Shown here in pieces: positions 45,931-63,025 of a stretch of DNA of 64,000 nucleotides. The position numbers and the translations under genes were made by a program. How positions within the stretch are numbered: position 1 is the first letter of the stretch; each line of letters starts with the position of its first letter. This DNA comes from an uncultured Paenibacillaceae bacterium (lineage in GTDB: Bacteria > Bacillota > Bacilli > Paenibacillales > DA-C8), in assembly GCA_937957685.1 (NCBI GenBank), contig CALGAO010000031.1, positions 6,816-70,815 on the forward strand, read 5' to 3'. The notes under the pieces were generated by a model, which made no database searches, was not told the DNA's origin, and saw only the letters and a list, made by a program, of their open reading frames with translations.

Positions 45931-47706
45931 ATGAGGAAGCGAAGACCTTTCATCAGTATCTCGTCGAAGCTCATCTTCATCTTCTCGTGCATCATCATCG
46001 TGCCCGTGACGGTGATGTCGATCAACTCCTATGTGTCGTCACAGCGACTGCTGGAGAGGAAATATACCGATCTATTGTTGGATATCGCGAAGCAATCGAA
46101 TATTCGGATCAGCGAATACCTGAAAGAGATCGAGAAGATCACCCTCGTGTCGAGCTACGGCATGAATCGTTACTCTTCCCTCGTCTATCAGGAGGAATAT
46201 CCGATCCAGGATTTCCTGCACTACAGCAATGACGAGAGCGAGAACATCACGTATCGCGTTCTGATGAACTATATCCTGATGAAGGATCGGCTGTTCTCCA
46301 TCTATATCTACAGTCTCAACGGCGGACGCGACATGTTCGTCCATTCCACCGAGCCGATCGACTATTCGTATCGGCCGCTCCAGGAGCCGTGGTTCCGGGA
46401 GTTTCTCGCATCTGACAGGAAAGTGGTCATCCTCGATCCCCAGGTGGACAAGCAGATTCGGAACAAAAACAAGTACGCCGTCCTCCATGCGCGCAAAGTA
46501 TTCGACATGTCCAACGGCAGGCTGCTCGGCGTCATGGTGGCCAGCATCGACATCAACTTTATCGGACTGTTCACCAACCGTCTGCAGGAGGGCCTGCGCA
46601 CCAATTTTACGATCGTCGACCAGCACAACCGCATCATCTATCATGCCAATTCCCAGTTGATCGGGCGGTCGTTCCACGACATCATGCCGTTTCGCGATGA
46701 GAAGGGCATCACGCAAGCCTGGGGGGAGGACTATCTCGTCGTCCGGAGCCCGTTTGAAGAGCTGCCGTGGACAACCTATCTGTACACTCCGCTCAGCGAG
46801 ATATCGGCCGAGGGGGCGATCCTGAAGCAGAACATGTTCATCCTCGCCGGACTGATCCTCGTGTTTGCTTCTTTCACCTCCATCTTCCTGTCCACGGTTA
46901 TCGCGCGACCGATCAAGAAGCTGATGCGAAACATCACGCTCGTGGAGAAAGGGATGTTCGACAATCTTCCCGTGATCGACTCCAACGACGAGATCGGAGA
47001 ACTGTCACGCCGCTTCAACAGGATGTCTTCCGAACTGAAGCAACTGGTCTCGCGAATACAGAAAGAGGAAAAAGAAAAGGCGATGGCAGAGATCCGGGCG
47101 CTGCAATCCCAGATCAATCCGCACTTTCTGTACAACACATTGGGTTCCGTCAAATGGATCGCATCCATGCAGAAGGCGGACAAGATCGTGGAGATGACGG
47201 AGGCCCTGATCTCCATCCTCCGGTACACCGCCAAGCTGGAGAGTTCCATGGTCACCCTTCGTGAGGAGATTGACAACATCCGGAACTACATCATCATCCA
47301 GAATGTTCGCTATTACAACCGAATCCAGCTGCAGATCCAGGTCGATGACAGCCTGCTGGGGAGCAGGATGCCGAAGCTCATCCTGCAACCGATCGTGGAG
47401 AATGCGATCTTCCATGGCTTCGCGGAATTGGAGGATGAAGGCATCATCACCGTACGCGCGCACAGATATGACGAAGGGATACAGATCGAAATCTCGGATA
47501 ACGGCGCGGGAATCGATCCCGCCACGGCTGAGTGGCTGAACCGGGAGCTGCGTTCGGCTGAGAACATCCAGACGTCGGGGATCGGACTGCCCAACGTGCA
47601 GAGACGCATCCAGCTTCATTACGGAGATCGCTACGGCATTGGCTTTCACAGTGCGCAGGGTCAGGGGACCACGTTCGTGATCACGCTGCCTGATATTCAG
47701 GACTAA
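45931..47706 (+). CDS. YesM-type sensor histidine kinase (Cache, HAMP)
   Basis: Two TM; LQSQINPHFLYNTL; LQPIVENAIFHG; GIGLPNV. Confidence 0.93.
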   Translation: MRKRRPFISISSKLIFIFSCIIIVPVTVMSINSYVSSQRLLERKYTDLLLDIAKQSNIRISEYLKEIEKITLVSSYGMNRYSSLVYQEEYPIQDFLHYSNDESENITYRVLMNYILMKDRLFSIYIYSLNGGRDMFVHSTEPIDYSYRPLQEPWFREFLASDRKVVILDPQVDKQIRNKNKYAVLHARKVFDMSNGRLLGVMVASIDINFIGLFTNRLQEGLRTNFTIVDQHNRIIYHANSQLIGRSFHDIMPFRDEKGITQAWGEDYLVVRSPFEELPWTTYLYTPLSEISAEGAILKQNMFILAGLILVFASFTSIFLSTVIARPIKKLMRNITLVEKGMFDNLPVIDSNDEIGELSRRFNRMSSELKQLVSRIQKEEKEKAMAEIRALQSQINPHFLYNTLGSVKWIASMQKADKIVEMTEALISILRYTAKLESSMVTLREEIDNIRNYIIIQNVRYYNRIQLQIQVDDSLLGSRMPKLILQPIVENAIFHGFAELEDEGIITVRAHRYDEGIQIEISDNGAGIDPATAEWLNRELRSAENIQTSGIGLPNVQRRIQLHYGDRYGIGFHSAQGQGTTFVITLPDIQD

Positions 47707-47727
47707 CCATGGGAAGGAGGCGATGCC

Positions 47728-49347
47728 ATGTTAAAACTGATGATCGTAGATGATGAGTTACTGATGCGCATCGGACTGAAGTCGATGATGGAATGGGAGA
47801 GGTACGGGTTTCAGATCGTCGGGGAGGCTTCGAACGGAAGAGAGGCGCTGGAGCTGGCGCTTGCTGTCATGCCTGATCTCATCATCTCGGACATCAAGAT
47901 GCCCGTGATGGACGGCCTCGCGATGATACGCGAGCTGTCGCCCAGGCTGCCGCGCTGCCAGTTCGTCATCTTCAGCAACTTCGATGACTTTCACCTGGTC
48001 AAGGAAGCGCTGCGGCTCGGTGCGAGTGACTATCTGATCAAGAGCGAGATCCGGCATGAGATGCTCGCTGAAGTCTTAAATCGCATACGCCAGAAGCTGG
48101 AGAATGATGGGAGAATACCGCAGGCGCTGTTTGCATTGCCGGATTATACACAGAGTTTGACCTATCTGAAGGAGAACCTGTTTAAAGAGACGATCAGCGG
48201 TCTGGCCAGCAAGGAGAAATTCGAGGCGTTGCGGGAACAACTGTATATTCGCTTGCAGCCGGAGCCCTTCGTCGTGATCAAGATGATGATCGACCGGTTT
48301 GACCAGGTGAAGAAGAAGTATGTGGAGAAGGACGAGAAGCTGCTGCGCTTCTCCATCGTGAATATCGTCGAGGAGATCACGCTGCCCAAGCGAGACAAGG
48401 AAGTGGTGGTCGAAAGCTCCTCGGAATATCTGCTGTTCCTCAATGTTCAGCATGAGGAATCTGAGCAGGCAAGAGCCCAACTTCTCAAGCTGTGCCAGAG
48501 GCTGCTGCGCACCGTGAACGATTTTATGAACCTGTCCATATCGCTCGGCATCAGCAGCATGGTGCAAGGTTATTCTTACATCCGGCTGGCCTATAACGAA
48601 GCGGATATTGCTGTAAGACGTCGCTTCTATGAAGGGGCGGGCAGCATCATCTTCTTCGAAGACCTGTCGCGGGAGCCGGCGCGAGACGGCCGTCAGATGC
48701 CGCTCACCCGCGTCCACGCGGAACAGTTTCAGCATGTGATGGACAGCGGCAACCGGGCCGGGCTGACGGCTTTCCTGTCCACCGTCCGGCAGGTGTTGCA
48801 CAAGGCACGATCCGACGAGGAAACCGTGCGCCAAACGTATCTCTACCTGCTGGAGATTGCGAATGCGACGTTCTATGTCGGATCACTGGCCCACGGATCA
48901 CCCAGCATCCCCCCGTATGAAGCGATCCTGCATGCGGAGACATGGGAGGATATGGAGAACGTGCTTGCCGAGCATGTCCTGGCGTGCATGGAGGCGGAGC
49001 AGGACGATGCCTATCGCTCTTACACGGATATGGCGATCGAGCTCATCAACCGGTATTATGCGGAAGATATTTCCTTGCAGAGCGTGGCCAGTCAGATCAA
49101 TGTGAACGCCTCGTACCTGAGCCGCATCTTCAAACAGGAAACCGGAGAAAACTTCACCGCTTACCTGACACGCATCCGCATCGAGAAAGCGAAGCACTAT
49201 CTGGCCAGCGGACGCCTGCGCGTCTCTGAAGTGGCGCACAAGGTCGGCTACCACAACTACACGTACTTCAGCAAGATATTCAAGAAGGTGGTCGGCATGA
49301 GCCCGGAAGATTATCGAGCCAAGGTCTGTTCGACGACGACGCCGTGA
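47728..49347 (+). CDS. YesN-type response regulator (REC + AraC HTH)
   Basis: IVDDE, SDIKMPVMDG, YLSRIFKQETG, YFSKIFKKVVG. Confidence 0.93.
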   Translation: MLKLMIVDDELLMRIGLKSMMEWERYGFQIVGEASNGREALELALAVMPDLIISDIKMPVMDGLAMIRELSPRLPRCQFVIFSNFDDFHLVKEALRLGASDYLIKSEIRHEMLAEVLNRIRQKLENDGRIPQALFALPDYTQSLTYLKENLFKETISGLASKEKFEALREQLYIRLQPEPFVVIKMMIDRFDQVKKKYVEKDEKLLRFSIVNIVEEITLPKRDKEVVVESSSEYLLFLNVQHEESEQARAQLLKLCQRLLRTVNDFMNLSISLGISSMVQGYSYIRLAYNEADIAVRRRFYEGAGSIIFFEDLSREPARDGRQMPLTRVHAEQFQHVMDSGNRAGLTAFLSTVRQVLHKARSDEETVRQTYLYLLEIANATFYVGSLAHGSPSIPPYEAILHAETWEDMENVLAEHVLACMEAEQDDAYRSYTDMAIELINRYYAEDISLQSVASQINVNASYLSRIFKQETGENFTAYLTRIRIEKAKHYLASGRLRVSEVAHKVGYHNYTYFSKIFKKVVGMSPEDYRAKVCSTTTP

Positions 49348-49378
49348 ATTTCCTGACCGATACCGAAGGAGGGATCGG

Positions 49379-50653
49379 ATGAACAGAATGAGAGGGTGGT
49401 TCATGCCAGCGGGGGTCGGCTTGCTGTTCATCATGCTGACAGCATGCGTACACCCCGATGTTCCCGCAAGCGATATGGCCGAGCAGGAGACGGAGCCCAT
49501 CGTCCTGAGATACTCCAGTTTTCTCCTCGATTCCGCGCAGGCGGGCGACGTGTATCACAACGCGGTGGCGGAGTTCGAGGCGCAGCATCCGCACATTCGC
49601 ATCGACCGGGACTTTATCCCGAACACCAATTATACGGCGGGCATCAAGACGCGGCTGCTTGGCGGAGAGAAGCTCGATGTATTCGACGTCTGGTCTCCCA
49701 GCCTGTTCGAGGAGTTTCGCAAGCTCGGTGACGTCTACCTGGACTTGAGCGGCGAGCCGTTTCTGGATGAATTCCTGTCTTCCTCGTTGGAACCGGTTAC
49801 ATTCGACGGCAAGGTGTACGGCGTTCCGGAGGTGATGCACAGCGACGGACTGCTCTATAACCGTACGCTGTTCGAAGAACTGGGCCTGAGCGTTCCCCGG
49901 ACATGGGACGAATTTATCGAGGTGTGTGAGGCGCTCAAAGCCAGAGGGATCATACCGATCGCCTTTGATTCCGAATGGTGGGGACCGCAATTTTTCTTCG
50001 GCTCGATCATGTCCAATAACGGCGCGGATGCGGCCTGGACCGAGAAGCTGGAGCGCGGTGAAGTGACGGTGCGCGATCCGATCTTTGTCGATGCGATGAT
50101 GAAAACGAGAGAGCTGATCGACAGGGGGTATGTTCCGCCGGACTGGCTGAGCCTGAGGCGCGAGCAGACGAAGGATATGATCGGAGCAGGGAAAGCGGCC
50201 ATGATGATCGCTGGCACATGGGACATGCCGAGTGTCATCGCCCGCAATCCGGATTATGACATCGATTTTATGATGGTGCCGGGAACGGACAGGACCGTTC
50301 CGAACATCAACATCGGGACGTATCGGGTGATCTATGCCGGGACGGAATATCCGGAGGAGGCGAAGCTGTTCGTGGCGTTCATGAACGGCAGGGCGAATCA
50401 GGAGAAACTGGCCCTTGGCGCGCTGGCGGTGCCTTCGGTGAAGGATTACCGGGTGAATCATCCGATCGTCGAGAAGATTGCGGCGGTCGTCACCCGTGAG
50501 GACGCGACCTTGTACTGGCCGCATACGGTATCCACCGAATCGCTGCAGGTGAGCATCCTGGAAGGAGTGAATCAATATCTGGTCGGCGCCGAGCTGGAGG
50601 CGGCACTCGACCAGATCCAGGCGGCGATCGATCAGGCGAGATTCAGAAGATAA
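49379..50653 (+). CDS. Sugar-binding lipoprotein encoded with the two-component system
   Basis: Lipobox MLTAC; LLYNRTLFEELG, PRTWDE, GKAAM family-1 SBP motifs. Confidence 0.88.
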   Translation: MNRMRGWFMPAGVGLLFIMLTACVHPDVPASDMAEQETEPIVLRYSSFLLDSAQAGDVYHNAVAEFEAQHPHIRIDRDFIPNTNYTAGIKTRLLGGEKLDVFDVWSPSLFEEFRKLGDVYLDLSGEPFLDEFLSSSLEPVTFDGKVYGVPEVMHSDGLLYNRTLFEELGLSVPRTWDEFIEVCEALKARGIIPIAFDSEWWGPQFFFGSIMSNNGADAAWTEKLERGEVTVRDPIFVDAMMKTRELIDRGYVPPDWLSLRREQTKDMIGAGKAAMMIAGTWDMPSVIARNPDYDIDFMMVPGTDRTVPNINIGTYRVIYAGTEYPEEAKLFVAFMNGRANQEKLALGALAVPSVKDYRVNHPIVEKIAAVVTREDATLYWPHTVSTESLQVSILEGVNQYLVGAELEAALDQIQAAIDQARFRR

Positions 50654-50809
50654 CCGGATGCCGATTATGGAGCGCACATCAGCTCGGGAACCAGCATGTT
50701 TCACGCATGTTTCGCGCATGCGTTTTTTTGTTTTATGCAAAAAAAAGCATATAGCCGGTAAAAATATGGCAAATTCGACATGCCGGACCCGGCCGCCCCC
50801 CGGAAGCTG

Positions 50810-50874
50810 GTAAAGAAAGCAACAATGGTTGTAAAAAACGATGATAGAGCAAAGGCAAGTTCCTGTTCTATCAT
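50810..50874 (+). promoter_or_regulatory. Activator-dependent promoter: 37-bp direct-repeat operator plus -10 box
   Basis: GTAAAGAAAGCAACAATGGTTGTAAAAAACGATGATA-22nt-TATCAT; 28/37 identical to 59636-59672. Confidence 0.75.
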
Positions 50875-50911
50875 GTGGGGGACAATGGCAAATTCATTAT
50901 GGAGGATGGTC

Positions 50912-52189
50912 TTGATGAAGCAACGATGGTTGGTCGGACTTCTGGCATTATTGCTGGCATTGATGATGGCCGCCTGCAGTTCGGGCGGCAACGCGGGAAA
51001 TGGTGATGCTGGAGACAAAGGCGGTGATTCAAGCAAAAAAGCGACGCTCCGATTCGCATTGTGGGATTCCAATCAGGCGAAAGGCTTGCAAGTGATGGCC
51101 AATGAGTTCATGGAAGACAATCCGGATATGAACATCCAGATCGAGGTCACCGGCTGGATGGACTACTGGACGATGCTCGAAGCGGGAGCCACGGGCGGTT
51201 CATTGCCGGATGTGTTCTGGATGCACTCCAATGAGATCTATCGTTACGCATCCAACGGGATGCTGCTGGATCTGACGGACCGGATCAACAAGAGCAGCAA
51301 GGTCGACCTGAGCAAGTTCCCGCAAGGGATCGTCGAAATCTACAACCATGAGGGCAAACAGTATGCGGTGCCGAAGGATTTCGACACGATCGGACTTTGG
51401 TACAACAAGAAGCTGTTCGATGAAGCGAATCTCGCATACCCGGATGAGAACTGGACCTGGGATGATCTGTACAATGCGGCGAAGGTATTGACGAAAGACG
51501 GCGTGTACGGCTTCCTCGCAGCGTTCCATAACCAGGAGGGGTATTACAACTTCGTCTATCAAAATGGCGGCACGATCATCACGAAGGACAAGAAGTCGGG
51601 CTACGATGATCCGAAGACGATTGAAGCCCTGGAATTCTACGTGAAGTTTATCCGCGACGGTCTCTCGCCGCAAATATACGGCGACGCGGAACGCGCCGAG
51701 GCGCTGCAAAACGGCCTCGTGGCGATGGGACTGTTCGGTTCGTGGAACCTGTCCGGATTCACGGCGAATGAATTCATCTCGGAGAACTTCGATGTAGCCG
51801 TCCTGCCGAAGAATACCCATCGGGCCTCGATCTACAACGGTCTGGGCTATGCGATCGCGCATAATACGAAGTATCCGGATGAAGCGTGGAGGTTCGTCGA
51901 ATATCTCGGTTCGAAGGAAGGTCAGGAGAGACAGGCGGAACTCGGCGTTGCGATCTCCGCGTATGAGGGCACGGCCGAGAAATGGATCTCCTCCAACGAC
52001 AAGTTCAATGTGAAAGTCTTCGTCGATATGGTCGATTACGGTGTCATCAGGCCTTACTCGAAGACGACCGCAGTATGGGAAGACAAGGCGTATGAAGCCT
52101 TAAGACCTGCCTTTACAGGCGAAATATCGGTTGAAGAAGCGGCTCGGAATGCGGCCAGAATCATGAATGAAAGCCTGGCAACCGAATAA
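50912..52189 (+). CDS. Carbohydrate ABC transporter substrate-binding lipoprotein
   Basis: SD GGAGG; lipobox MMAAC; LPDVFWM, LWYNKKLFDEA, WTWDDL. Confidence 0.92.
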   Translation: MMKQRWLVGLLALLLALMMAACSSGGNAGNGDAGDKGGDSSKKATLRFALWDSNQAKGLQVMANEFMEDNPDMNIQIEVTGWMDYWTMLEAGATGGSLPDVFWMHSNEIYRYASNGMLLDLTDRINKSSKVDLSKFPQGIVEIYNHEGKQYAVPKDFDTIGLWYNKKLFDEANLAYPDENWTWDDLYNAAKVLTKDGVYGFLAAFHNQEGYYNFVYQNGGTIITKDKKSGYDDPKTIEALEFYVKFIRDGLSPQIYGDAERAEALQNGLVAMGLFGSWNLSGFTANEFISENFDVAVLPKNTHRASIYNGLGYAIAHNTKYPDEAWRFVEYLGSKEGQERQAELGVAISAYEGTAEKWISSNDKFNVKVFVDMVDYGVIRPYSKTTAVWEDKAYEALRPAFTGEISVEEAARNAARIMNESLATE

Positions 52190-52274
52190 CAGGATGACAA
52201 TGATCCATTCCGGGATGGGATACATTGCGGCAGCCGTACGGTTGCCGCAATTTTAACTGAAGGGAGGTCGCGAT

Positions 52275-53183
52275 ATGGCGAAATTATCAAACAAGGTGTC
52301 CAAAAACACGTGGAATGAATGGATCTGGGCCTGGTTTCTGATCGCGCCTACCACCATAGGCTTGATCGTCCTGAATATCATCCCGATCTTTCAGACCGCG
52401 TACCTCAGCTTCTTCAAAAGCGGTGACTTCGGCCGCAATCACATCTTCGTCGGTCTGGACAACTACGTGCGCATGTTTCAGGATCCGCAGGTTTGGCAGG
52501 CGGTGGTCAACACCCTGGTCTACACGCTTCTGGTCGTTCCGGTCAGCATCGCCTTCGCCATGCTGATCGCCGTTCTCCTGAACCGGCCGATCCGTGGCAG
52601 ATCGCTCTACCGGACGATCTACTTTATCCCGATGATCGCCGCGCCCGCGGCCGTCACGATGGTATGGAGATGGCTTTACAACTCAAACTTCGGACTGATC
52701 AACTACCTGTTGTCCTTGCTCGGCATCCCGCCCGTGAACTGGACGACGGACCCGAAGATTGCGATCGTCTCCATCGCCATCATCGGCATCTGGAGCATCG
52801 TCGGGTACAATATGGTGCTGCTGCTCGCAGGACTGCAGGAGATCCCGAGAGACTTTTACGAGGCATCGGAGATCGACGGCGCGGGGAAGGTGAAGCAGTT
52901 CTTCACAGTGACGTTGCCGCTCGTTACGCCGACGCTGTTCTTCGTCATGGTGACGACGATCATCCAGTCGATGCAGGTATTCGACGTGATCTACATGATG
53001 ATCGATATCACGAATCCGGCGTACGAGAAGACGGTGTCGCTGGTCTATCTGTTCTACAACAACTCCTTCAAGTATTCCGACAAGGGCTATGGATCCGCGA
53101 TCGTCATGCTGCTGCTCGCGATCATCATGATCATCACCGTCATCCAGATCAAGGTGCAGAAAAAATGGGTGAACTATTCGTAA
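52275..53183 (+). CDS. Carbohydrate ABC transporter permease 1
   Basis: FVGLDNY; LAGLQEIPRDFYEASEIDGA EAA loop. Confidence 0.93.
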   Translation: MAKLSNKVSKNTWNEWIWAWFLIAPTTIGLIVLNIIPIFQTAYLSFFKSGDFGRNHIFVGLDNYVRMFQDPQVWQAVVNTLVYTLLVVPVSIAFAMLIAVLLNRPIRGRSLYRTIYFIPMIAAPAAVTMVWRWLYNSNFGLINYLLSLLGIPPVNWTTDPKIAIVSIAIIGIWSIVGYNMVLLLAGLQEIPRDFYEASEIDGAGKVKQFFTVTLPLVTPTLFFVMVTTIIQSMQVFDVIYMMIDITNPAYEKTVSLVYLFYNNSFKYSDKGYGSAIVMLLLAIIMIITVIQIKVQKKWVNYS

Positions 53184-53205
53184 GGCGAGAAAGGAAGGAG
53201 AACCG

Positions 53206-54036
53206 ATGAGTTATAAGCCGATGGTGTCACGCATCCTGATCCATGTGTTCCTAATCTCGGGAGCCTGCAGCATGATCCTGCCGTTCGTCTGGATGGTGCT
53301 GACCTCGTTCAAGACAGTCGCCGAATCGACCTCGATGAATCCCTTTGTCTGGCTCCCGAGTGAATGGAAATGGGAGCATTACATTAACGTATGGCGACAG
53401 AACAATTTCCTGATCCTGTATGTGAACACGTTTGCGATGATGGCCATTCGCGTCATCCTGGGCGTCCTGTTCAGCGCCATGGCCGCCTATGCATTCGCCC
53501 GATTGAGATTCCCGGGCAGAAGCTTCTTCTTCGGACTGGTCCTGTTTCAGATGATGGTGCCGACACAGATCTTCATCATACCGCAATATCTGATGGTCGA
53601 CGCGCTCAACATGCGCAACACGATCTTTGCCCTGGTCTTTCCCGGTCTGGTGAGCGCCTTTGGAACGTTCCTGCTGAGGCAATTTTTCCTGGTGCTGCCG
53701 AAGGAACTGGAAGAGGCGGCGAAGCTGGACGGCTGCAATATCGGGCAGACATTCCTGTTCGTCATGCTGCCGCTCACCCGTTCCGGCCTCGTCGCCCTGG
53801 GGATCTTCACAGCGCTGTTCGCCTTCAAGGAGCTGATGTGGCCGCTCATCGTCAACACGAGCGCGGACGCCGCGACGCTGTCATCCGCCCTTGCGAAGAT
53901 TCAGAGCGCTTATTCCGTTCATTATCCGGAGCTGATGACCGCTGCCGTGCTGGCAATATGGCCGATGATGCTCGTCTATTTCCTGTTCCAACGTCAATTC
54001 ATCGAGGGGATCTCGACCTCAGGAGGCAAGCTGTAG
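53206..54036 (+). CDS. Carbohydrate ABC transporter permease 2
   Basis: AAYAFARLRFPG; LPKELEEAAKLDG; FQRQFIEG. Confidence 0.93.
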   Translation: MSYKPMVSRILIHVFLISGACSMILPFVWMVLTSFKTVAESTSMNPFVWLPSEWKWEHYINVWRQNNFLILYVNTFAMMAIRVILGVLFSAMAAYAFARLRFPGRSFFFGLVLFQMMVPTQIFIIPQYLMVDALNMRNTIFALVFPGLVSAFGTFLLRQFFLVLPKELEEAAKLDGCNIGQTFLFVMLPLTRSGLVALGIFTALFAFKELMWPLIVNTSADAATLSSALAKIQSAYSVHYPELMTAAVLAIWPMMLVYFLFQRQFIEGISTSGGKL

Positions 54037-55113
54037 CTTCTCCTCATCATCCTGTGCATGCAGGTAATCCATGAGTCGCAAGATCATCACCACCGCCTCC
54101 GCCCGTGTCGTCACTCCTTGCGGCGCAAACCGGTTGTCGCCAACTCCCTGAACAAGTCCAAGTTCTGTGGCGGCGGCGACAGCCGGATACGCCCAATCTC
54201 CTATCCGATCCGCATCTCGATACGCCAGCGGTTTGCCTGCCGCAGCCTGCTCGTCATACCCTGCCGCGCGCATGATCATGACCGTCATCTCGGCGCGCGT
54301 GATCAGCCGTTCAGGTCCGAAAGTGCGATCAGGGAAGCCTCGGACGATTCCAGCCGCGGTCGCGCGGGCCACATGCTCTCTGGCGAAGTCCGGTATGCGA
54401 TCGGCGTCGATGTAATCCGGCCTGGAGCTTGTCGGGCCGGAGAGCATCAGGGCTCTGGACAACATCGTGGCGAACTGCGCGCGCGTCACCTCATCCTGCG
54501 GTCCGAACCTGCCGTCCGGATAGCCCTTGATCCACCCCATCCGCTCCGCCCTCAGGATCGCGTACTCCGCCCAATGCCCCTCGATGTCGCTGAATATGGC
54601 CGCGGTTGGAGCAACCTGCAAGGTGATCTTGACATCGGGACTTTGGGAGATGCTGTTCACCTGGCTGTCCACCAGCTTGACGCGAGCCAGGCGGACGGAG
54701 GTTTCCCCATACCCGATCGCCTTGAACCGAATCGTGGCCAGCTGCACATCTCCGCTCTCTCCGCTCACCTTGCCGATCTTCGTATGCGCGAAGACGATCA
54801 CCCCGTTCCGAATGATCGGCGGGACCGTGAATCCCGACCAATCTGCGGACGCTTCCCTCACCTCCAGCACTTCCGGATCATACATGAGTCGCAGCTCGTA
54901 TCCATACACATCGCTCAGGTGTTGAGCGCTGATGGTCACGTCCAGCTCTTCACCCGCCTGCACCCGCTTGACGACGGCGTCCAACGTGTAGATGGGCTCG
55001 TCCAGGGCAAGCGCGGCAGAAGTGGTCGCGATCAGCATATAAGCGAGCATCATGATGGCCAGGGAGCACCTGGCGACCAGACGCATCGACTTGCTAAATA
55101 TCCTGTGTCTCAT
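54019..55113 (-). CDS. Secreted single-cohesin + 3xSLH cell-surface anchor protein (SdbA/OlpA-like architecture)
   Basis: Signal peptide; cohesin-like VTISAQHLSDVYGYELRLMYDPEVLE...LATIRFKA; three SLH repeats (GYPDGRFGP..VTRAQ, GFPDRTFGP..ITRAE, GVGDNRFAP..TTRAE). Confidence 0.85.
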   Translation of the reverse strand: MRHRIFSKSMRLVARCSLAIMMLAYMLIATTSAALALDEPIYTLDAVVKRVQAGEELDVTISAQHLSDVYGYELRLMYDPEVLEVREASADWSGFTVPPIIRNGVIVFAHTKIGKVSGESGDVQLATIRFKAIGYGETSVRLARVKLVDSQVNSISQSPDVKITLQVAPTAAIFSDIEGHWAEYAILRAERMGWIKGYPDGRFGPQDEVTRAQFATMLSRALMLSGPTSSRPDYIDADRIPDFAREHVARATAAGIVRGFPDRTFGPERLITRAEMTVMIMRAAGYDEQAAAGKPLAYRDADRIGDWAYPAVAAATELGLVQGVGDNRFAPQGVTTRAEAVVMILRLMDYLHAQDDEEKLQLAS

Positions 55114-55151
55114 CAAGCACATGCCTCCTGTTATCCATGAGAGTGAAAAGG

Positions 55152-55193
55152 GCCAGGAGCATCCGCCTTCAGCAGGCGGTCGATGCTCCTGGC
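55152..55193 (-). terminator. Stem-loop between the enzyme and anchor genes
   Basis: GCCAGGAGCATC...GATGCTCCTGGC stem followed by CCTTTT on the minus strand. Confidence 0.6.
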
Positions 55194-55201
55194 TGATTCG
55201 A

Positions 55202-58200
55202 TTAATTGGACAGGATCAACTGAGCCATCATCACGAGATCGGTGATGTCGATGATGTCATCGCCGTTCAGATCGAAGTGCGAGTATTGATCCCAGTCAGG
55301 GCTGTTCTTCGATTTGCCGTAAGCGGATGCCATCATCGCGAGGTCGCCCACGCTCACGCGATCATCATCGTTGAAGTCGCCAGGGATCGTCGGCTTGCGG
55401 ATCAGGATCGTATGCTCTGCGCCGGCAACTGACGTTTCCGTGCCATCCTTGTCGGCGACGGTCAGATTCGTGATGCGGACCTTGGTCGTTCCCTCTGTCT
55501 CCAGGGCCTTGAACGGAAGCTTCATCAGGTCCTGATCGGGATTGGTCTGCCAGTCGTCCAGGTGAATGGCGATGACGCGAACCCTGCCAGGCTGATCTTC
55601 CTTGTAGCCCAGGATGACGAACTTGTTGTTCATCAGGGATACCGGTTCTCCGAGCATTTCGAGCAAGTCCTTGTCGTATTCGAACGTGATATCCTGAGCG
55701 TATACGGGCTGTCCGATGCCCCGCAGACCATAGGTCACATGGAACGTCTGCCCTTTCTCAACCGTCTCCGGACCGGTCAGGACCGCCGGACTGGTCGGCC
55801 CGTCAGAATCCACCATCACCTGCGGATACAGGTCGAAGCGGTCAAATGCTGGCGTGTACTGATTGGGCACGGCTGTATAGTGAGTGAATCCCGCCGTTCC
55901 CGATGCATTGTTGCCGCCGTATGGATTGGATCCGCCGTTGTACGTGTTGTTGTTGGAGAAGCGGATCGTGTTGGCGCCAGCTTTCAGATAAACATCGATC
56001 GTCTGGGTAGCGTAATGGAGCCACGAGATCGTGTTCTTGAAATGGACGGTGATCGGTTCTTCGCCGTTGACGCTGATCTGTGCGTAGCGCTCCACGACAT
56101 CGTTGTTATAGGCATGGGTGCCTGCGCTCTCGCCGTTCGCGTAAGTCACGACGAGCTTGTATACCCCGTCCTTCGGCACCACGATGTCACGAATCTCCAG
56201 ATAACGCTCCTGGCCGTCATACGAGGTGATGCCGTTGACATACTTGCCGCCGGATGCGTACCGGGCAGATATATCCGAACGGATCAGAGGCAGCTCTTGT
56301 CCTGCCGGCTCACCCACCACGATGGCATCCTCCGCTTCGATCGAGAAGATCGGCATCTTGCCGACGTAAACCGCCTGCACCTCATCCAGGCTCAGGCTCG
56401 CCGTCGATCTTACGTCGATCAGGTTAATGCCTCTGCGCAGGAACATGCGGACGGTGGCATCCTTCCAGCTGCCGCTCGTATGGCTGACCGGGATATCTAT
56501 CGCATGAATGCGGTCATGGTCGATGATGATCCGGCCGCTGCTTGCGGACGCATATCGGAATGTGACGTCGTACATGCCATCGTCGAGCACGCTGACGACG
56601 AAGCGTGTGCTTGCGTCGGCCTGGTTGCCATAGCCGGTGATGTAGCCTGCGCCGGTGAATCCGGAGAGCTCGTTATCTCTGTACAGGCCCGTTGCAGGAT
56701 CGTATTCGGAGAATTCCGCCTGCACCTTATAGGTTGGAGCGGCGCCCTTCGGACCGTGATAGGTCAGTTCGATCGCATCGAGCGTCGATTCGCCGATTCC
56801 TTCTTCACCCGTATCCAGGTTGTACTTGCTGATGCTGATCGTATGTGTGCCGGCATCCAGATCGATGAACGTCGTATGGCCGCCGAGCTGTTGCATGCTG
56901 TAATCGGCGCGCAGGATGATCTTGAAGGAAGGCTGATCATCCACCTTGATGAACCATTCCGAGTTGATGCGCTGAGTGGCATTGCCTGTGTTGGCCTGGT
57001 TCGGCATGCTCGCCGTCGCGCCGCTTCCGCCGATGAGATCCAGTCGATAAGATCCGTCGGCAGGCACCGTGATGTTCGTCCAGCGAACGACGCTGTCCTG
57101 CTTGTTGATGCCCTGGACGATGCGCCCGTTGGATGCCGAGCGATTGCTGCTGGCTGCCGGGTACAGGTTGGCGATCGAGACGTTCGTCCTGACATCAGCT
57201 TCTTCCGCCTCGTAGCGGCTGAACCATACCTCGTGCGGATCGCTGTCCGTAGCAGGAGTGATCACAGCGAAGTAAGCGGCCGTGTAATCGTCGATGTCCA
57301 GAGTGAGGGTGACCGTTCCGTTTACGACCGGATAGTTGCGGTCGATGATCTGCGTCGGTTCCACGAGATAGCCGGTCAGTCCCGTGTATCCGGCGTACCA
57401 TACGGTGACTCTGACTTGCTCGGCATCCTTCAGGAACGCTGGGCTGTTCGCATGACCGCTTAAGTTGCGGAAGACGATCTTGCTGTTGCCCTTCGTTCCG
57501 CCGAACGCGATGGCGACCTGCTTCTTGTCATCCTGAATCGAGGCAAGTCCATAGAGACCAGGCCCCAGGTTGTCATCCTCATGTCTGGAGTTGATCACGG
57601 TGATCTTTGCCATGTCGCCGCCGATCATATCGGCATACCATTTGTACAGCCACCATGCGCCATTCGGCTCATTCTGGCCTGCCAGGAGAGACCCGTAGGA
57701 GTTCGCCGTATTCCAGTAAGGCAACATGCTGTTCATCTTGTGCTCATCGTAGCGGGCGATATACTGGATCAGCGATCCGCCCACCGCGATTTCCTCCATG
57801 GCGGCATATTCGTTAATGTCGACCTTCAGCGGGAACGGACTCGCGCGATCCGGATATTTCTCCAGGTAGATCGGTTCGTACTTCTCTTCCAGCGCACGGA
57901 AGGATGCGAGGTTGGGCCCTGCTTGCAGGAAGGCCTTGGCCCACAGCAAGTGCCAGGAGACGACATCCGGCAGGCAATCGTGCTCGACGCAGAATGCGAT
58001 GAAGTCCTCCATGAACACATTCGAATATTGGGTCAGGTTCGGTCCGGAGATGAGCGCACCAGGATCGAGTTCCTTGATCTTGTTTGTGACCGCCAGCCAG
58101 TCGCTGTTGAACACGGCGCGTGAATTTCTGCCCGTCTGGTTATTGCTCAACAATTGCGGGTAGCGGGTGTTGTTCTGCTCCGGTTCATTGTACGGGATGT

Positions 58201-59500
58201 AGATGAATTTTTCGTCCGGGTTTTCACCTGGATGGGCGGCTGCCCATTGATCCTTGAACTGCCTGACCGCCGTGACGATCGGAATGACCGCTTCATTGAT
58301 ATATTCTTGAGCCGTTCTGGACGGATAGTACCAGCGTTGGTAATAATCCTGCATGACGATGTTGACCACTTGCCCGCCAGCCTCGAAGAAGTAATCCGCC
58401 ACGCGCAGCGCATCGCCGGTCGGATGCTGGATGCCGTTCGGCGGCTTCTGCGTGATATGGGAAGGCTTGATCGGGAGCAGGGTATTGATGTCCGGGACGT
58501 TCGGTTCGCTCAAGGCATACAGCGCGCCGGCCGCCCCATGGAAGATCGGCCCAAGCGAACGATCCGCCAGATCAACGGTGATCTGTGCAGGCATGGTTTC
58601 GCCGGCACCTTCATGCTTCGTCTCTTCATACAGCGCGCTGACCTGGTCAGCCGTCAGCATCACATTGTACAGTCTGATGTCGTCAAACTTGCCGGCGATA
58701 TCTCCGTCGGAAGTATACAACGATCTGCCGAAGTCATTGTACGTCAAGGCATCAAGATATTCGCGGCTGAACAGTCGTTCCAGCACGGAAGCAACCGTGG
58801 CGCCGCCTGTGCTGTTGTTCGGTTCGATGCCTTTGATGCCGGTCGGTTCGCCGTCGAAGTACACTTCGTACTCGCCGCCCTCGTTCATCGCAACCACGAT
58901 ATGTTGCCATTTGCCACGGGCAGGGTTCTTGTTCCAGGCGATGTCCCCTTTGTACGAGGCGATCTTCGTCGGATCCGTACCGATGTAGATCCGATTGTTG
59001 AACGTGCCGCCGCCTGCCACGAAGATGAATTCCGGATCCTGCCAGCCGGATATGCCGGAATTCGTCAACCCTTTCTCCGTGATCGTGGAGGACAGCAGGC
59101 GCGTATAACCGCTGGACGACGATTCGATGTACGCCCATACGGCAAACGTCAGCTCGTCATTCACCTGTGAGTACAGATGATTGGGCAAGCTTAGCCATCC
59201 AGTGCCATTTACGCCGCCGGATAAGGACAGGACATTGCCTCTCAGCTCATCTGTTATCACTTGCGCCGTTCCCTTGAGTACTGCATCATCCGCACGATTG
59301 TCCGAGTTGGCGCTGTTCACTACGTTTGCCCCATCCACTTGATCGAAAGTCCAATGGAAGATCGGCGTTGCAGGATCTGACTCTGCGAGGAGAGATACGT
59401 CAGGGACAGAAGCGGAGACTGAAGCGCTTGCAAATGCAGGCGGCAACAGGAGCAAGATTGCAAGCATGGTCATCAGCGCACGCTTGGCATAGCTTTTCAT
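55202..59500 (-). CDS. Secreted modular glycoside hydrolase: LamG - GH39-like (clan GH-A) - multiple CBM35/CBM6-like - cohesin-like - dockerin
   Basis: Signal peptide; LamG (KWQHIVV, FDDIRLYN); YNEPE acid/base and INEY nucleophile; YEAE/QAE/IEAED CBM starts; dockerin loops DFNDDDRVSVGD and DLNGDDIIDITD. Confidence 0.85.
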   Translation of the reverse strand: MKSYAKRALMTMLAILLLLPPAFASASVSASVPDVSLLAESDPATPIFHWTFDQVDGANVVNSANSDNRADDAVLKGTAQVITDELRGNVLSLSGGVNGTGWLSLPNHLYSQVNDELTFAVWAYIESSSSGYTRLLSSTITEKGLTNSGISGWQDPEFIFVAGGGTFNNRIYIGTDPTKIASYKGDIAWNKNPARGKWQHIVVAMNEGGEYEVYFDGEPTGIKGIEPNNSTGGATVASVLERLFSREYLDALTYNDFGRSLYTSDGDIAGKFDDIRLYNVMLTADQVSALYEETKHEGAGETMPAQITVDLADRSLGPIFHGAAGALYALSEPNVPDINTLLPIKPSHITQKPPNGIQHPTGDALRVADYFFEAGGQVVNIVMQDYYQRWYYPSRTAQEYINEAVIPIVTAVRQFKDQWAAAHPGENPDEKFIYIPYNEPEQNNTRYPQLLSNNQTGRNSRAVFNSDWLAVTNKIKELDPGALISGPNLTQYSNVFMEDFIAFCVEHDCLPDVVSWHLLWAKAFLQAGPNLASFRALEEKYEPIYLEKYPDRASPFPLKVDINEYAAMEEIAVGGSLIQYIARYDEHKMNSMLPYWNTANSYGSLLAGQNEPNGAWWLYKWYADMIGGDMAKITVINSRHEDDNLGPGLYGLASIQDDKKQVAIAFGGTKGNSKIVFRNLSGHANSPAFLKDAEQVRVTVWYAGYTGLTGYLVEPTQIIDRNYPVVNGTVTLTLDIDDYTAAYFAVITPATDSDPHEVWFSRYEAEEADVRTNVSIANLYPAASSNRSASNGRIVQGINKQDSVVRWTNITVPADGSYRLDLIGGSGATASMPNQANTGNATQRINSEWFIKVDDQPSFKIILRADYSMQQLGGHTTFIDLDAGTHTISISKYNLDTGEEGIGESTLDAIELTYHGPKGAAPTYKVQAEFSEYDPATGLYRDNELSGFTGAGYITGYGNQADASTRFVVSVLDDGMYDVTFRYASASSGRIIIDHDRIHAIDIPVSHTSGSWKDATVRMFLRRGINLIDVRSTASLSLDEVQAVYVGKMPIFSIEAEDAIVVGEPAGQELPLIRSDISARYASGGKYVNGITSYDGQERYLEIRDIVVPKDGVYKLVVTYANGESAGTHAYNNDVVERYAQISVNGEEPITVHFKNTISWLHYATQTIDVYLKAGANTIRFSNNNTYNGGSNPYGGNNASGTAGFTHYTAVPNQYTPAFDRFDLYPQVMVDSDGPTSPAVLTGPETVEKGQTFHVTYGLRGIGQPVYAQDITFEYDKDLLEMLGEPVSLMNNKFVILGYKEDQPGRVRVIAIHLDDWQTNPDQDLMKLPFKALETEGTTKVRITNLTVADKDGTETSVAGAEHTILIRKPTIPGDFNDDDRVSVGDLAMMASAYGKSKNSPDWDQYSHFDLNGDDIIDITDLVMMAQLILSN

Positions 59501-59902: not shown

Positions 59903-62900
59903 CTATTCTGCATCAGACTTGCCGTGTTGGAACGGCCACCAATTCGCCTGGCCGAACAAACGCACCATCAGCGGAATGAACAGCGGCAGGAACACGAGCG
60001 CGTAGAGCACGAGTCCCGCCAGGACGATCGTCGCGATCATGAGCAGCGACAGGACGCCGGACGGAAGCATCGCCGCAAACGTGCCGCCGAGGATGATGAC
60101 CGCCGAGAAGATGACTGAACCCATCTTCTTCATCGCTTCAAGGATCGCATCCTTCACATCAAGATGCGTATACTCGTTGAAGCGGCCCATCAGGAAGATG
60201 CTGTAGTCGATGCCCAGCGCGAGCAGCATGACGAAGGCGAAGAATGGTACCGCCCAGGTAACGCCGTCATATCCGAGCAGATCGACGAAGATCCATTCTG
60301 CGATCCCCATCGAGGTGTAATAGGTAAGCAGCAGCGAAGCCATGAGATAGATCGGCATGATGATCGATCTAAGCAGCAACGCCAGCACGATGAAGATTCC
60401 GATCAGCATGATAACCGCCGTGCGGCTGAAGTCTTCCTCCGATACCATGGCCAGGTCATGGTGCATGCTGGTCGTACCGCCTGCGGCATATTCCGCGTCA
60501 TCCAGCGGCGTCCCAGCTACTGCCCGCGCCACCGCTGCATTCAGATCCTCGATCTTATCGAGCGTCTCCTGGTCGTATGGGTTGGTGTCGAAGATCACAT
60601 CCAGCTTCGTCGTCATCCGGTCAGCCGACAGATAATTGTCGAGCACCTGGACGAACAGCTCCTCCTCGAGTACTTCCTCCGGCATGTACCAACCGCCAAG
60701 TTCATCATCATTGGTCGACAGGACCTCCAGATAATCAACGGCTTGATTCAAGCCATCTCCGATCTGTGTCAAACCGTCAACGCTCTGCATCAACCCATCG
60801 GTCAATAAACCAATCTGGCTGTTCAGTTCCGCAAATCCTGCTTGCAGCTGGCGCTGACCGTCTTCGATCTGCGTCAGACCGTCGATCGCGCCAGGGACAT
60901 TCGCTGCAATCTGTCCTTGCCCATCAGCCGCCAGGTTGAGGCCTTGTTCCAGCTCTTGCAGTCCACCTATCAACGCATCAAACGCCTTGTTCAGCTCGCT
61001 GTGCCCAGCGTTGGCCTGACTGAATCCGGCTGTGGCATCGCTCAAGCCAGCCTGCACGTTAGCGAGCTGCGCATTCAATTGGCCGATGCCTGCAGTCAGT
61101 TCCTCGGCTCCGCCTTTGAGCTGCGTTGCGATGCCAAGCGCTGTCTGGAACTGCACATCCTGCGCAAGATCCGGATGGCTCGCTGCTACGGCCTGCAACG
61201 CTTGCTCCAGGCCAACCAGCCCATCACGTATGCCTGCCAGCCCTGCCTCGATATTGCCATACTGTTCTGACAATACGCCTACACCGCCGCTCAGCTGCTC
61301 GTAGGCGTCTGCGATCTGTTGATACGTCGCTCGCAGCGTCTCCGCATTGCGCCTCATCTCCTCGAGGCCGCTTCTCAGCTGAGCAGCGCCAAGCGCGCCG
61401 TCGCGCACGCCTTTCTCCAGCTCGCCAAGTCCCGCAGAGAGCTGTGACAGACCGTTCACCAGTTCATTGGTCCCATCTGCCAATGCAGCTGCTGCATCGA
61501 CGGCTTCGTCCAGCTTCGGCTTCGACTCTGTCAGTTTGTCACTCGCTTCAGCGAGACCGTCGCGAACCTGCACGATGCCGTCCACTCCTTGGACAAGCCC
61601 GTCCTTCAGCATATCCGCCTGACCCGACACCGACAGTTCCTTCAGCTCCTCGCCAACCGGACGCGTTGCACTGCGCACCTTGCTTACGCCGTCCACCTCC
61701 AGCAGCTCGCGGCTGATCCGCTCGATCCAAGCCATGCCTTGCGGATTGTCCAGCGGTTCATCATGCTGGATGACGATCGAAGTAGGCAATGATTCCCCCG
61801 GGCCGAAATGCTCCGAGACGATATTGAACGCCTTCACCGAATCGTAACGCTCACCGATCTCATCCAGAGAGTTATACGTCACATCGCCGTCATATTGCCA
61901 GAGTGTCGGGACGACGATGACCGCGATGATCGCCAGCGCGATGAGCGGTCTGCGCAGCGAGAACGATCCAACAGCTCCCCACAACCGGCTGTCCTTATGG
62001 CCTAGGGACTTGCTGCCAGGCCAGAACATGGCGCGGCCGAACGTGGCCATGAAGAATGGCATCAACGTGAACAGGGCGATCAGCACGACCATCACGCCAA
62101 CGCCAACCGCAACGGCAGACTGGTAGAGGATGAACCTCGAGAAACCGATGGCGATGAAACCGACGAGAACCGCAAGACCGGAGAAGATTACCGTCTTACC
62201 CGCAGTACGATAAGTAGCAACGATCGCCTCTACCATGCTGTCTTGCTTAGCCAACTCTTCCTTAAACCGGCTGATCAGCAAGATGCAATAATCCGTCCCG
62301 ATCCCGAACATGACCGCAACCATGAAGATCTGCGTATACGTTGACAGCGGAAAGCTCACATATTCAACCAGATACGCCACGATCGACTGGGCAGCGAGAT
62401 AGCTGATCCCGATCGTCAAGAGCGGGATGAAAGGGGCAATCGCCGAACGGAATACGACGAACAGAATGACCAGAATAAAGACAACCGTGATCACTTCCGT
62501 TCGCTTAAGCCCTTCCTGCGAGGAGATCACCACATCTTCCGTTATCAACGTGCTGCCGGTCAGATAGTGCTCCACCGACACGGAATCCATCGCGTCGTAC
62601 AACCCATCGCGCAGATCGCTCTCTGCCCATGCCTCTCCATCCAGACCAAGCAGCACGAGCACCGTCGTGCCGTCCTCCGAAACCATCTGCTTAGCCAGGT
62701 CCGGCTGTTCAAAGTGCGACATGACCGACGTAAGTCTCAGCTCGTCTTGACGCTCCTTCAAGATGTTCACAGCATCTTCAATCTCGCTCAGTTCTTGTTC
62801 ATCAAGACCGTCATGATCATAAAATACATAAACCGCTGATGCGCCGCTGCCCCCAATCTCCTCGAGCATCTCTGCTGCACGCAGCGAAGCCGAGCCGTCC

Positions 62901-63025
62901 GGCATCGTCAGTTGCCCCTTCTCCCGGACCAGCTCCTGCATATTCGGCGCCGTCAGGAAGAGCCCCACCGCGAGCACAAGCCACAGAGCGAGTACCGCCC
63001 AACGGAACCTAACGATTGCTTTCAT
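59903..63025 (-). CDS. MMPL/RND-family membrane protein with coiled-coil insert (YdgH-like)
   Basis: GIGTDYCILLISRFKEE and ALGIDYSIFLMGRF motifs; GxxxLxxG heptads. Confidence 0.9.
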   Translation of the reverse strand: MKAIVRFRWAVLALWLVLAVGLFLTAPNMQELVREKGQLTMPDGSASLRAAEMLEEIGGSGASAVYVFYDHDGLDEQELSEIEDAVNILKERQDELRLTSVMSHFEQPDLAKQMVSEDGTTVLVLLGLDGEAWAESDLRDGLYDAMDSVSVEHYLTGSTLITEDVVISSQEGLKRTEVITVVFILVILFVVFRSAIAPFIPLLTIGISYLAAQSIVAYLVEYVSFPLSTYTQIFMVAVMFGIGTDYCILLISRFKEELAKQDSMVEAIVATYRTAGKTVIFSGLAVLVGFIAIGFSRFILYQSAVAVGVGVMVVLIALFTLMPFFMATFGRAMFWPGSKSLGHKDSRLWGAVGSFSLRRPLIALAIIAVIVVPTLWQYDGDVTYNSLDEIGERYDSVKAFNIVSEHFGPGESLPTSIVIQHDEPLDNPQGMAWIERISRELLEVDGVSKVRSATRPVGEELKELSVSGQADMLKDGLVQGVDGIVQVRDGLAEASDKLTESKPKLDEAVDAAAALADGTNELVNGLSQLSAGLGELEKGVRDGALGAAQLRSGLEEMRRNAETLRATYQQIADAYEQLSGGVGVLSEQYGNIEAGLAGIRDGLVGLEQALQAVAASHPDLAQDVQFQTALGIATQLKGGAEELTAGIGQLNAQLANVQAGLSDATAGFSQANAGHSELNKAFDALIGGLQELEQGLNLAADGQGQIAANVPGAIDGLTQIEDGQRQLQAGFAELNSQIGLLTDGLMQSVDGLTQIGDGLNQAVDYLEVLSTNDDELGGWYMPEEVLEEELFVQVLDNYLSADRMTTKLDVIFDTNPYDQETLDKIEDLNAAVARAVAGTPLDDAEYAAGGTTSMHHDLAMVSEEDFSRTAVIMLIGIFIVLALLLRSIIMPIYLMASLLLTYYTSMGIAEWIFVDLLGYDGVTWAVPFFAFVMLLALGIDYSIFLMGRFNEYTHLDVKDAILEAMKKMGSVIFSAVIILGGTFAAMLPSGVLSLLMIATIVLAGLVLYALVFLPLFIPLMVRLFGQANWWPFQHGKSDAE

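Follow-up and report, generated by a model that had tools for sequence, protein, structure and literature searches.

A stretch of 64,000 nucleotides from an uncultured bacterium of the Paenibacillaceae (assembly GCA_937957685.1, contig CALGAO010000031.1; this whole stretch is referred to as the window) encodes on its minus strand a large secreted enzyme that terminates in a dockerin and, as the next gene in the same orientation, a small protein that combines one cohesin with three surface layer homology (SLH) repeats. Cohesin-dockerin assembly has been studied mostly in anaerobic cellulosome producers. In C. (Acetivibrio) thermocellum, OlpA/OlpC and SdbA consist of a signal peptide, one cohesin and three SLH repeats, and have no catalytic domain. 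Here the two genes of the window, termed enzyme and anchor, are described together with their relatives in the same genome and across the order, and the ways in which the anchor could hold the enzyme at the cell wall are weighed.

The Enzyme and Anchor Genes

The enzyme is built from a signal peptide, a LamG module, a GH39-like catalytic domain, three CBM35/6-like modules, a cohesin and a dockerin, in this order (Table 1). Its N-terminus reads as a Sec-type signal peptide (MKSYAKRALMTMLAILLLLPPAFA/SA). In phmmer searches, residues 306-749 match PDB 8UWT (E 3e-35) and 5U22 (NF2152, E 1e-32), and the catalytic motifs align with those of the two structures, such that YNEPE falls on WNEPD (the NEP acid/base motif) and DINEY on AINEY (the INEY nucleophile motif). 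The glycoside hydrolase of the original prediction is thereby supported. None of the Pfam GH models matched the catalytic domain, so that its placement in a CAZy family follows only from homology to 5U22. For the CBM-like modules, Pfam CBM_35, CBM_6 and CBM13-like models all stay under their cut-offs; the first repeat taken alone has no significant PDB match, and is identified by its similarity to the third (28% identity, E 7e-8). Orthologs of the enzyme in Paenibacillus nanensis and P. soyae share 69% identity over about 1390 residues, and a protein identical to it is recorded in metagenomes (P0113).

NF2152 is a GH39 α-L-(β-1,2)-arabinofuranobiosidase, and the bifidobacterial GAfase and AAfase, in which GH39 is combined with three galactose-binding-like domains, free disaccharides from the side chains of arabinogalactan-protein and arabinan (PMC10688797). 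The window enzyme resembles these proteins in its homologous GH39 domain, which is followed, as in AAfase, by three galactose-binding-like modules, but the identity is low and the enzyme adds an N-terminal LamG module and a C-terminal cohesin-dockerin tail. The best guess for its substrate would be arabinose-containing side chains of arabinogalactan-protein or pectic arabinan.

The duplicated Ca-loop dockerin that had been proposed at about 55205-55381 is found as a Pfam Dockerin_1 match to residues 1373-1429 (window 55214-55384). The two F-hand Ca loops are complete, and across 12 homologs the ligands (D13/N15/D17/D24 and D48/N50/D52/D59 in alignment A3) do not vary. Overlooked in the original prediction was a cohesin of the enzyme's own, so that its picture of a plain enzyme-dockerin pair is right about the dockerin, but incomplete for the tail. 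This cohesin is separated from the dockerin by a linker of about 7 residues, with no FIVAR module directly before the dockerin. An AlphaFold2 (AF2) model of the last 203 residues of the enzyme (predicted local distance difference test, pLDDT, 90.9; predicted template modelling score, pTM, 0.71) shows a cohesin sandwich and, after it, a dockerin of three helices, and the best solved matches of the cohesin are the non-cellulosomal C. perfringens cohesins 2vo8/2jh2 (TMt 0.87-0.88, rmsd 1.8-2.0 Å, 21-26% identity). To the cohesin of the anchor it has only marginal BLAST similarity (E 0.013), and it is of a different class.

The next co-oriented gene encodes a signal peptide, one cohesin and three SLH repeats, as had been claimed; Pfam and the AF2 fold agree on this architecture, the signal peptide was read from the sequence, and Pfam detects no catalytic domain. 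The true start of the anchor is probably the ATG at 55113, which lies 10 nt after AGGAGG and gives a protein of 364 aa, the length also of the closest homologs. Absence of a cohesin fold had been named as an argument against the system, but the AF2 model of the anchor (pLDDT 88.4) resembles dozens of solved cohesins, including that of A. fulgidus (2xdh), with 2vo8/2jh2 as the best matches (TMt 0.77-0.78). The SLH repeats bear TRAQ/TRAE/TRAE motifs, and the SLH region matches the SLH domain of B. anthracis Sap (PDB 3pyw) both in sequence (E 2e-13) and in the model (TMt 0.85). The layout is the same as that of OlpA/OlpC/SdbA, although the identity of the cohesin to those proteins is only 12-18%; the cohesins of OlpA and OlpC bind enzyme dockerins directly, and the fold matches found here include PDB 3ul4 and 4dh2. 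Homologs of the anchor (341-373 aa) are spread over many named Paenibacillus species, frequently with several copies in one genome, and are annotated in databases as SLH-domain proteins, nothing more. Some homologs are longer, e.g. at L085:6776-8665 (+), with open reading frames (ORFs) of 540-640 aa and extra sequence beside the cohesin, and may be two-module anchors. The GC content of the anchor stretch is 61.5%, compared with 54-56% in the adjoining stretches.

Table 1. Positions of the modules of the two window genes, of the surrounding features and of related features on other contigs and loci (L numbers denote loci, C numbers contigs of the same genome).
Feature	Position	Strand	Evidence or remarks
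Enzyme gene, 1432 aa	55202..59500	-	ORF list, translation, domain searches
Laminin_G_3/concanavalin-like module, residues 99-288	58637..59206	-	Pfam PF13385, 36.4 bits, cut-off 27.6
GH39-like clan GH-A catalytic domain, residues 306-749	57254..58585	-	phmmer against PDB
Three CBM35/6-like modules, residues about 760-1200	55901..57223	-	PDB 2wz8 (E 8e-24), 2vzp (E 5e-6)
Enzyme-borne cohesin, residues 1238-1366	55403..55789	-	Pfam Cohesin, residues 1242-1365, 45.1 bits
Dockerin, residues 1373-1432	55205..55384	-	Pfam Dockerin_1, 26.4 bits, cut-off 22.9
17-bp GC-rich hairpin, then CCCUUUUC	55153..55193	-	RNA fold; between enzyme stop and anchor start
Anchor gene, 367 aa	54019..55122	-	ORF list, Pfam: signal peptide, cohesin, three SLH repeats
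Anchor cohesin, residues 40-172	54607..55005	-	Pfam Cohesin, residues 52-161, 37.2 bits, cut-off 24.1
Three SLH repeats, residues 177-349	54076..54594	-	Pfam SLH, 139 bits, 3 stretches
dCache histidine kinase, AraC-type response regulator, two solute-binding proteins, two ABC permeases	45931..54036	+	Pfam
Hairpins after the enzyme stop in further pairs	L011:9355-9445; L014, L016, L017 intergenic regions
PL11 rhamnogalacturonan lyase	contig C136		cohesin-FIVAR-dockerin; canonical dockerin; no adjacent anchor
PL11 and GDSL esterase	contig C7		enzyme-type cohesin; FIVAR; dockerin without Ca loops
PL11, cut by contig end	contig C28		enzyme-type cohesin
Enzyme fragment	contig C125		enzyme-type cohesin; FIVAR; dockerin without Ca loops
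Second anchor, cohesin and three SLH repeats	contig C125		directly downstream of the C125 enzyme
Ca-loop-less dockerins, same genome	L011:9446-9643; L013:6392-6589	-; +	alignment A6
Ca-loop-less dockerins, other genomes	L021-L024, L027, L029, L032, L036, L038		alignment A6

Two Sets of Cohesins and Dockerins in the Genome and Their Spread in the Order

The assembly (4.1 Mb, 149 contigs) has a completeness of 85%, so that absences hold for the assembled part. Pfam and purpose-built hidden Markov models (HMMs) agree on seven cohesins genome-wide, one per protein, five of which are enzyme-type and two anchor-type; a separate HMM was built for the enzyme cohesins, which the anchor-cohesin HMM barely detects. 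Neither Pfam nor the family-specific HMMs found a multi-cohesin scaffoldin. The dockerin HMM identified only four tails, all 4/4 in cohesin-bearing proteins. The genome encodes four or five enzymes that end in cohesin and dockerin, alongside two anchors of the cohesin-SLH type. The window had been taken to hold a two-gene minimal system; the pair is real, but it does not stand alone, being one of two parallel scaffoldin-free sets that are split by dockerin class. The first set, with canonical dockerins, consists of the window enzyme, the PL11 lyase on contig C136 and the window anchor. The second comprises the PL11 enzymes on contigs C7 and C125/C28 together with the C125 anchor, and the dockerins of C125 and C7 have no Ca loops: a four-residue deletion takes out the DxNxD of loop 1 and loop 2 has other residues in place of N3 and D12, while YG, W and helix residues are retained (alignment A6). 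The PL11 tails on C28 and C125 (L010:2-4213 (-) and L011:9443-10822 (-)) are 94% identical over 342 residues and both lie at contig ends. Whether the two pieces belong to one gene was considered; because the assembly breaks inside the repeated cohesin-FIVAR cassette, they are either paralogs or strain variants, which are not separable here.

A true cellulosome was rejected for the assembled part of the genome, with no multi-cohesin scaffoldin, no cellulases among the clients (GH39-like, PL11) and only four dockerin tails. The genome differs from that of C. thermocellum in that no CipA-type multi-cohesin scaffoldin was found in it, a catalase is encoded and the clients bear a cohesin of their own. 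It contains 86 SLH repeats, many of them located in ORFs of very large size, and on contig C71 a gene for a CsaB-like pyruvyl transferase (PS_pyruv_trans match, 125 bits), and the wall ligand of SLH repeats, the pyruvylated secondary cell-wall polymer, would be expected to be available in this bacterium. Given these repeats and the CsaB-like enzyme, direct SLH fusion coexists with indirect docking.

The linkage seen in the window recurs in other genomes. When 23 full-length anchor homologs from other Paenibacillus genomes were fetched with their flanks, 19/23 had close upstream a large co-oriented ORF ending in a dockerin (10 canonical, 9 without Ca loops), and the catalytic domains of these upstream enzymes were diverse (PL11, GH39-like and others). 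All of the dockerin-tailed enzymes examined (24/24) contain exactly one enzyme-type cohesin, located 64-304 residues before the C-terminus. In the tree of enzyme cohesins, proteins with canonical and with Ca-loop-less dockerins split at 100/100 support, with one long-branch exception, and a Ca-loop-less dockerin is always accompanied by its own enzyme-cohesin clade. In the anchor-cohesin tree (20 rows), the dockerin class of the neighbor switches only twice, compared with about 8 switches on average for shuffled labels, each class counted alone; the window anchor falls into a starred clade (95/89), all members of which follow canonical dockerins. Since the modules are inherited together, this indicates stable, diversified cassettes rather than proven co-evolution.

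A search at the level of the GTDB family, which covered only 3 genomes, returned nothing, and was then widened to the order. There, anchor-type cohesins are present in 118/301 sampled genomes and in 26/60 genera, with up to 14 per genome, and dockerin tails in 112/301. Both features occur in 101 of the 301 genomes, an anchor cohesin only in 17, a dockerin tail only in 11 and neither in 172. Most of the genomes with a single feature have weak matches only, the cohesins of the anchor-only genomes lying mostly at E about 1e-9 to 1e-13. With such a distribution, and with a like system described for P. guangzhouensis in a 2024 genome survey (PMC11557425), the display system cannot be called unusual for Paenibacillaceae, as had been supposed.

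Binding was addressed by complex prediction for the anchor cohesin (residues 40-172, 20-row alignment) together with the dockerin (12-row alignment), the only pair that was modelled. The median score was 0.49 (runs 0.49, 0.43 and 0.54), compared with 0.02 for the best control; the runs share at least 95% of contacts and the partner pLDDT is at least 74. The score mark is attained by 58/80 solved complexes and by 2/110 mismatched pairs, but among those that attain it with a score of 0.60 or under are only 7/80 solved complexes and both of the passing mismatches. Since cohesin-dockerin complexes have already been solved, the pass may reflect likeness to them instead of binding by this very pair, and the prediction shifts the odds of binding little.

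How the Enzyme May Be Held at the Cell Wall

Enzyme and anchor probably form a non-covalent wall-display unit, in which the enzyme is displayed through the anchor. Sec would export the enzyme, its C-terminal Ca-loop dockerin would plug into the single cohesin of the anchor, and the three SLH repeats of the anchor would bind the pyruvylated secondary cell-wall polymer, such that the enzyme would act at the cell surface, beside the ABC importer from the surrounding 14-kb block. Of this picture, the domains, folds, gene linkage and co-occurrence are observed, and we infer the binding of the dockerin to the anchor, the identity of the receptor cohesin, the substrate and any role of the enzyme's own cohesin. 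The proposal that the enzyme hangs on the wall via the adjacent adaptor is favored indirectly by the frequent adjacency, by the genome-level co-occurrence and by a weak complex pass. The further proposal that the adaptor carries enzymes encoded elsewhere may apply to the C136 PL11 lyase, which ends in a canonical dockerin and lacks a neighboring anchor gene.

The two genes are separated by a hairpin (Table 1) with a folding energy of -36.2 kcal/mol (z -4.85; 0/200 shuffles as good), and strong hairpins occupy the equivalent position in the C125 pair and three pairs from Paenibacillus, which makes five independent pairs with hairpins that differ in sequence but not in position. A scan for consensus promoters and terminators returned no more sites than in shuffles, and missed the intergenic hairpin. 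The hairpin could be a leaky terminator or a 3' stabilizer, which would set the amount of the enzyme above that of the anchor.

Several observations weigh against display through the anchor. The complex score falls in the weak band, and 4/23 anchor homologs have no upstream dockerin gene. The strong intergenic hairpin may uncouple the expression of enzyme and anchor. Inheritance of the pair as a unit explains part of the adjacency and of the co-occurrence, and the related genomes in the co-occurrence counts are non-independent samples. The anchor cohesin is only 38% identical to its P. nanensis/P. soyae orthologs, compared with 69% for the enzyme. Finally, the enzyme's own cohesin could be the real partner of the dockerin.

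This last point leads to the best placed of the alternatives, in which the dockerin binds the enzyme-borne cohesin of another molecule to form a head-to-tail polymer, while the SLH anchor would serve only as its end or root, so that each anchor would display several enzymes without a scaffoldin. The invariable presence of one enzyme-type cohesin in the dockerin-tailed enzymes fits such chains, as does the split of the enzyme-cohesin clades in step with the dockerin class of the same protein, but cohesin and dockerin classes co-vary trivially if they are inherited within one protein. In many genomes there are also more dockerin tails than anchors (in G111, for example, at least 20 and 3, respectively), a hairpin acting like a terminator behind the enzyme gene would favor enzyme over anchor in amount, and the 2024 survey terms such proteins "monovalent adaptors" (PMC11557425). 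However, enzyme and anchor cohesins are barely alike, so that one dockerin binding both needs explaining, and chain formation as the arrangement in the window is considered unlikely. A wider proposal is tentative, with doubts prevailing: Paenibacillales would have two orthogonal scaffoldin-free cohesin-dockerin display systems, one of them with Ca-loop-less dockerins, in which each client, equipped with its own cohesin, could join the next in a head-to-tail row that starts from one SLH anchor, a "self-scaffolding" aimed at pectin and arabinogalactan and not at cellulose.

Still less probable is that the enzyme cohesin is not a receptor at all but packs on its own dockerin, which it would stabilize or supply with additional anchor contacts. 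X modules act in this way in type II X-dockerins. The short linker of about 7 residues, here and in the closest homologs, would suit such packing, the AF2 model of the tail is confident across both modules, and in the 24 enzymes examined the cohesin always accompanies the dockerin. Yet most paralogs have one to three FIVAR-sized spacers (70-240 residues) between the two modules, and the cohesin is a genuine one that is structurally closest to dockerin-binding cohesins of C. perfringens. Equally improbable is that there is no display, i.e. that the anchor cohesin binds another protein or a glycan, the enzyme is free and the adjacency reflects co-regulation in a glycan-utilization island: the four anchor homologs without an upstream dockerin gene, the 17/301 genomes with anchor-type cohesins in which no dockerin tails were detected and the weak complex score (0.49) would be accounted for, but not the 19/23 adjacencies with diverse catalytic domains or the anchor clades that track the dockerin class, and the anchor-only genomes mostly have weak cohesin matches. 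Display of the enzyme through the adjacent anchor thus remains the favored reading.

Genomic Setting and Comparison with Known Systems

Enzyme and anchor are convergent with genes for a histidine kinase, an AraC-type regulator, solute-binding proteins and permeases (Table 1). The last 18 nt of the anchor gene (54019-54036) are shared with the 3' end of the convergent ABC permease gene, and the consensus scan found no terminator-like site between them. In a same-genus genome that is 98% complete (G002; locus L094 = G002:C10), the genes PolA-HAD-MMPL-MarR are contiguous, and a block of roughly 14 kb (window 45.9-59.9 kb) is absent between HAD and MMPL. Anchor cohesins and dockerin tails were found in neither of the two same-genus genomes. 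P. nanensis and P. soyae share the order permease (81% identity), solute-binding protein (63%), enzyme (69%) and anchor (47-48%). Because the block is absent from G002 yet present in these two species, it is, as read from its gene content, an accessory module with predicted roles in sensing, degradation, display and import. Beyond it, at 59903-63025 (-), lies a gene for an MMPL-family membrane protein of 1040 aa, which shares 69% identity with its counterpart in the same-genus genome; the middle of the protein (about residues 484-754) gives weak, sub-threshold Pfam matches to coiled-coil-type families (Laminin_I, Rod_CreS and others); a MarR gene is located upstream of it. The original prediction of a catalase-encoding spore former is supported by a catalase at about 20339-21496 in the window and by Spo0A in the genome.

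The closest known system is that of P. guangzhouensis, for which the survey counts 35 cohesin proteins. Of these, 28 are "monovalent adaptors", each with a single dockerin-cohesin pair and frequently with a GH at the N-terminus; five SLH-anchoring scaffoldins are given as possible docking sites, and nearly all dockerins reside in cohesin proteins (Front Microbiol 2024, PMC11557425). The two systems are alike in having one cohesin-dockerin pair per enzyme and separate single-cohesin SLH anchors, in belonging to aerobic-type Paenibacillus or its relatives and in being known from sequence only. They differ in size, with 28 adaptors and 5 anchors there compared with 4-5 enzymes and 2 anchors here, and in their clients, which here are GH39-like and PL11 enzymes for pectin or arabinogalactan. 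The survey required a two-cohesin protein, and none was found in the present genome. Since P. guangzhouensis has the same architecture, the kind of system is already on record from sequence (PMC11557425). Compared with section 15 of that survey, the present analysis adds the enzyme-then-anchor gene order, the two dockerin classes with their own cohesin clades, the order-wide co-occurrence, the island and the hairpin. The searchable literature yielded no experimental study of such an enzyme-cohesin-dockerin/SLH-anchor system.

The glycosidases NagJ/NanJ/NagH of C. perfringens (2ozn, 2vo8, 2jh2) provide the nearest structures to the enzyme-borne cohesin, and themselves carry the cohesins and dockerins, without a scaffoldin. 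As in the FIVAR-dockerin system of that species (PMC9241160), a FIVAR module precedes the dockerin in the PL11 paralogs (C136, C7, C125). The window enzyme differs in having no FIVAR module, its cohesin being joined straight to the dockerin in one polypeptide; there is here a dedicated SLH anchor, and the targets are plant and not host glycans. The complex of P. curdlanolyticus S1 was dropped as a comparator, S1 having no cohesin and its xylanase no dockerin.

For this window the result is confirmatory and not surprising. Its interest lies in a layout that differs from cellulosomes, in that each enzyme carries both plug and socket while small SLH proteins serve as wall anchors, in a family found in about 39% of the sampled genomes of the order and in clients that are pectin and arabinogalactan enzymes of catalase-encoding soil bacteria. 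At stake is whether anchors hold their enzymes one-to-one or root self-extending enzyme chains, and whether the dockerins without Ca loops bind in a Ca-free manner. Either outcome would provide compact, possibly orthogonal parts for designer enzyme display.

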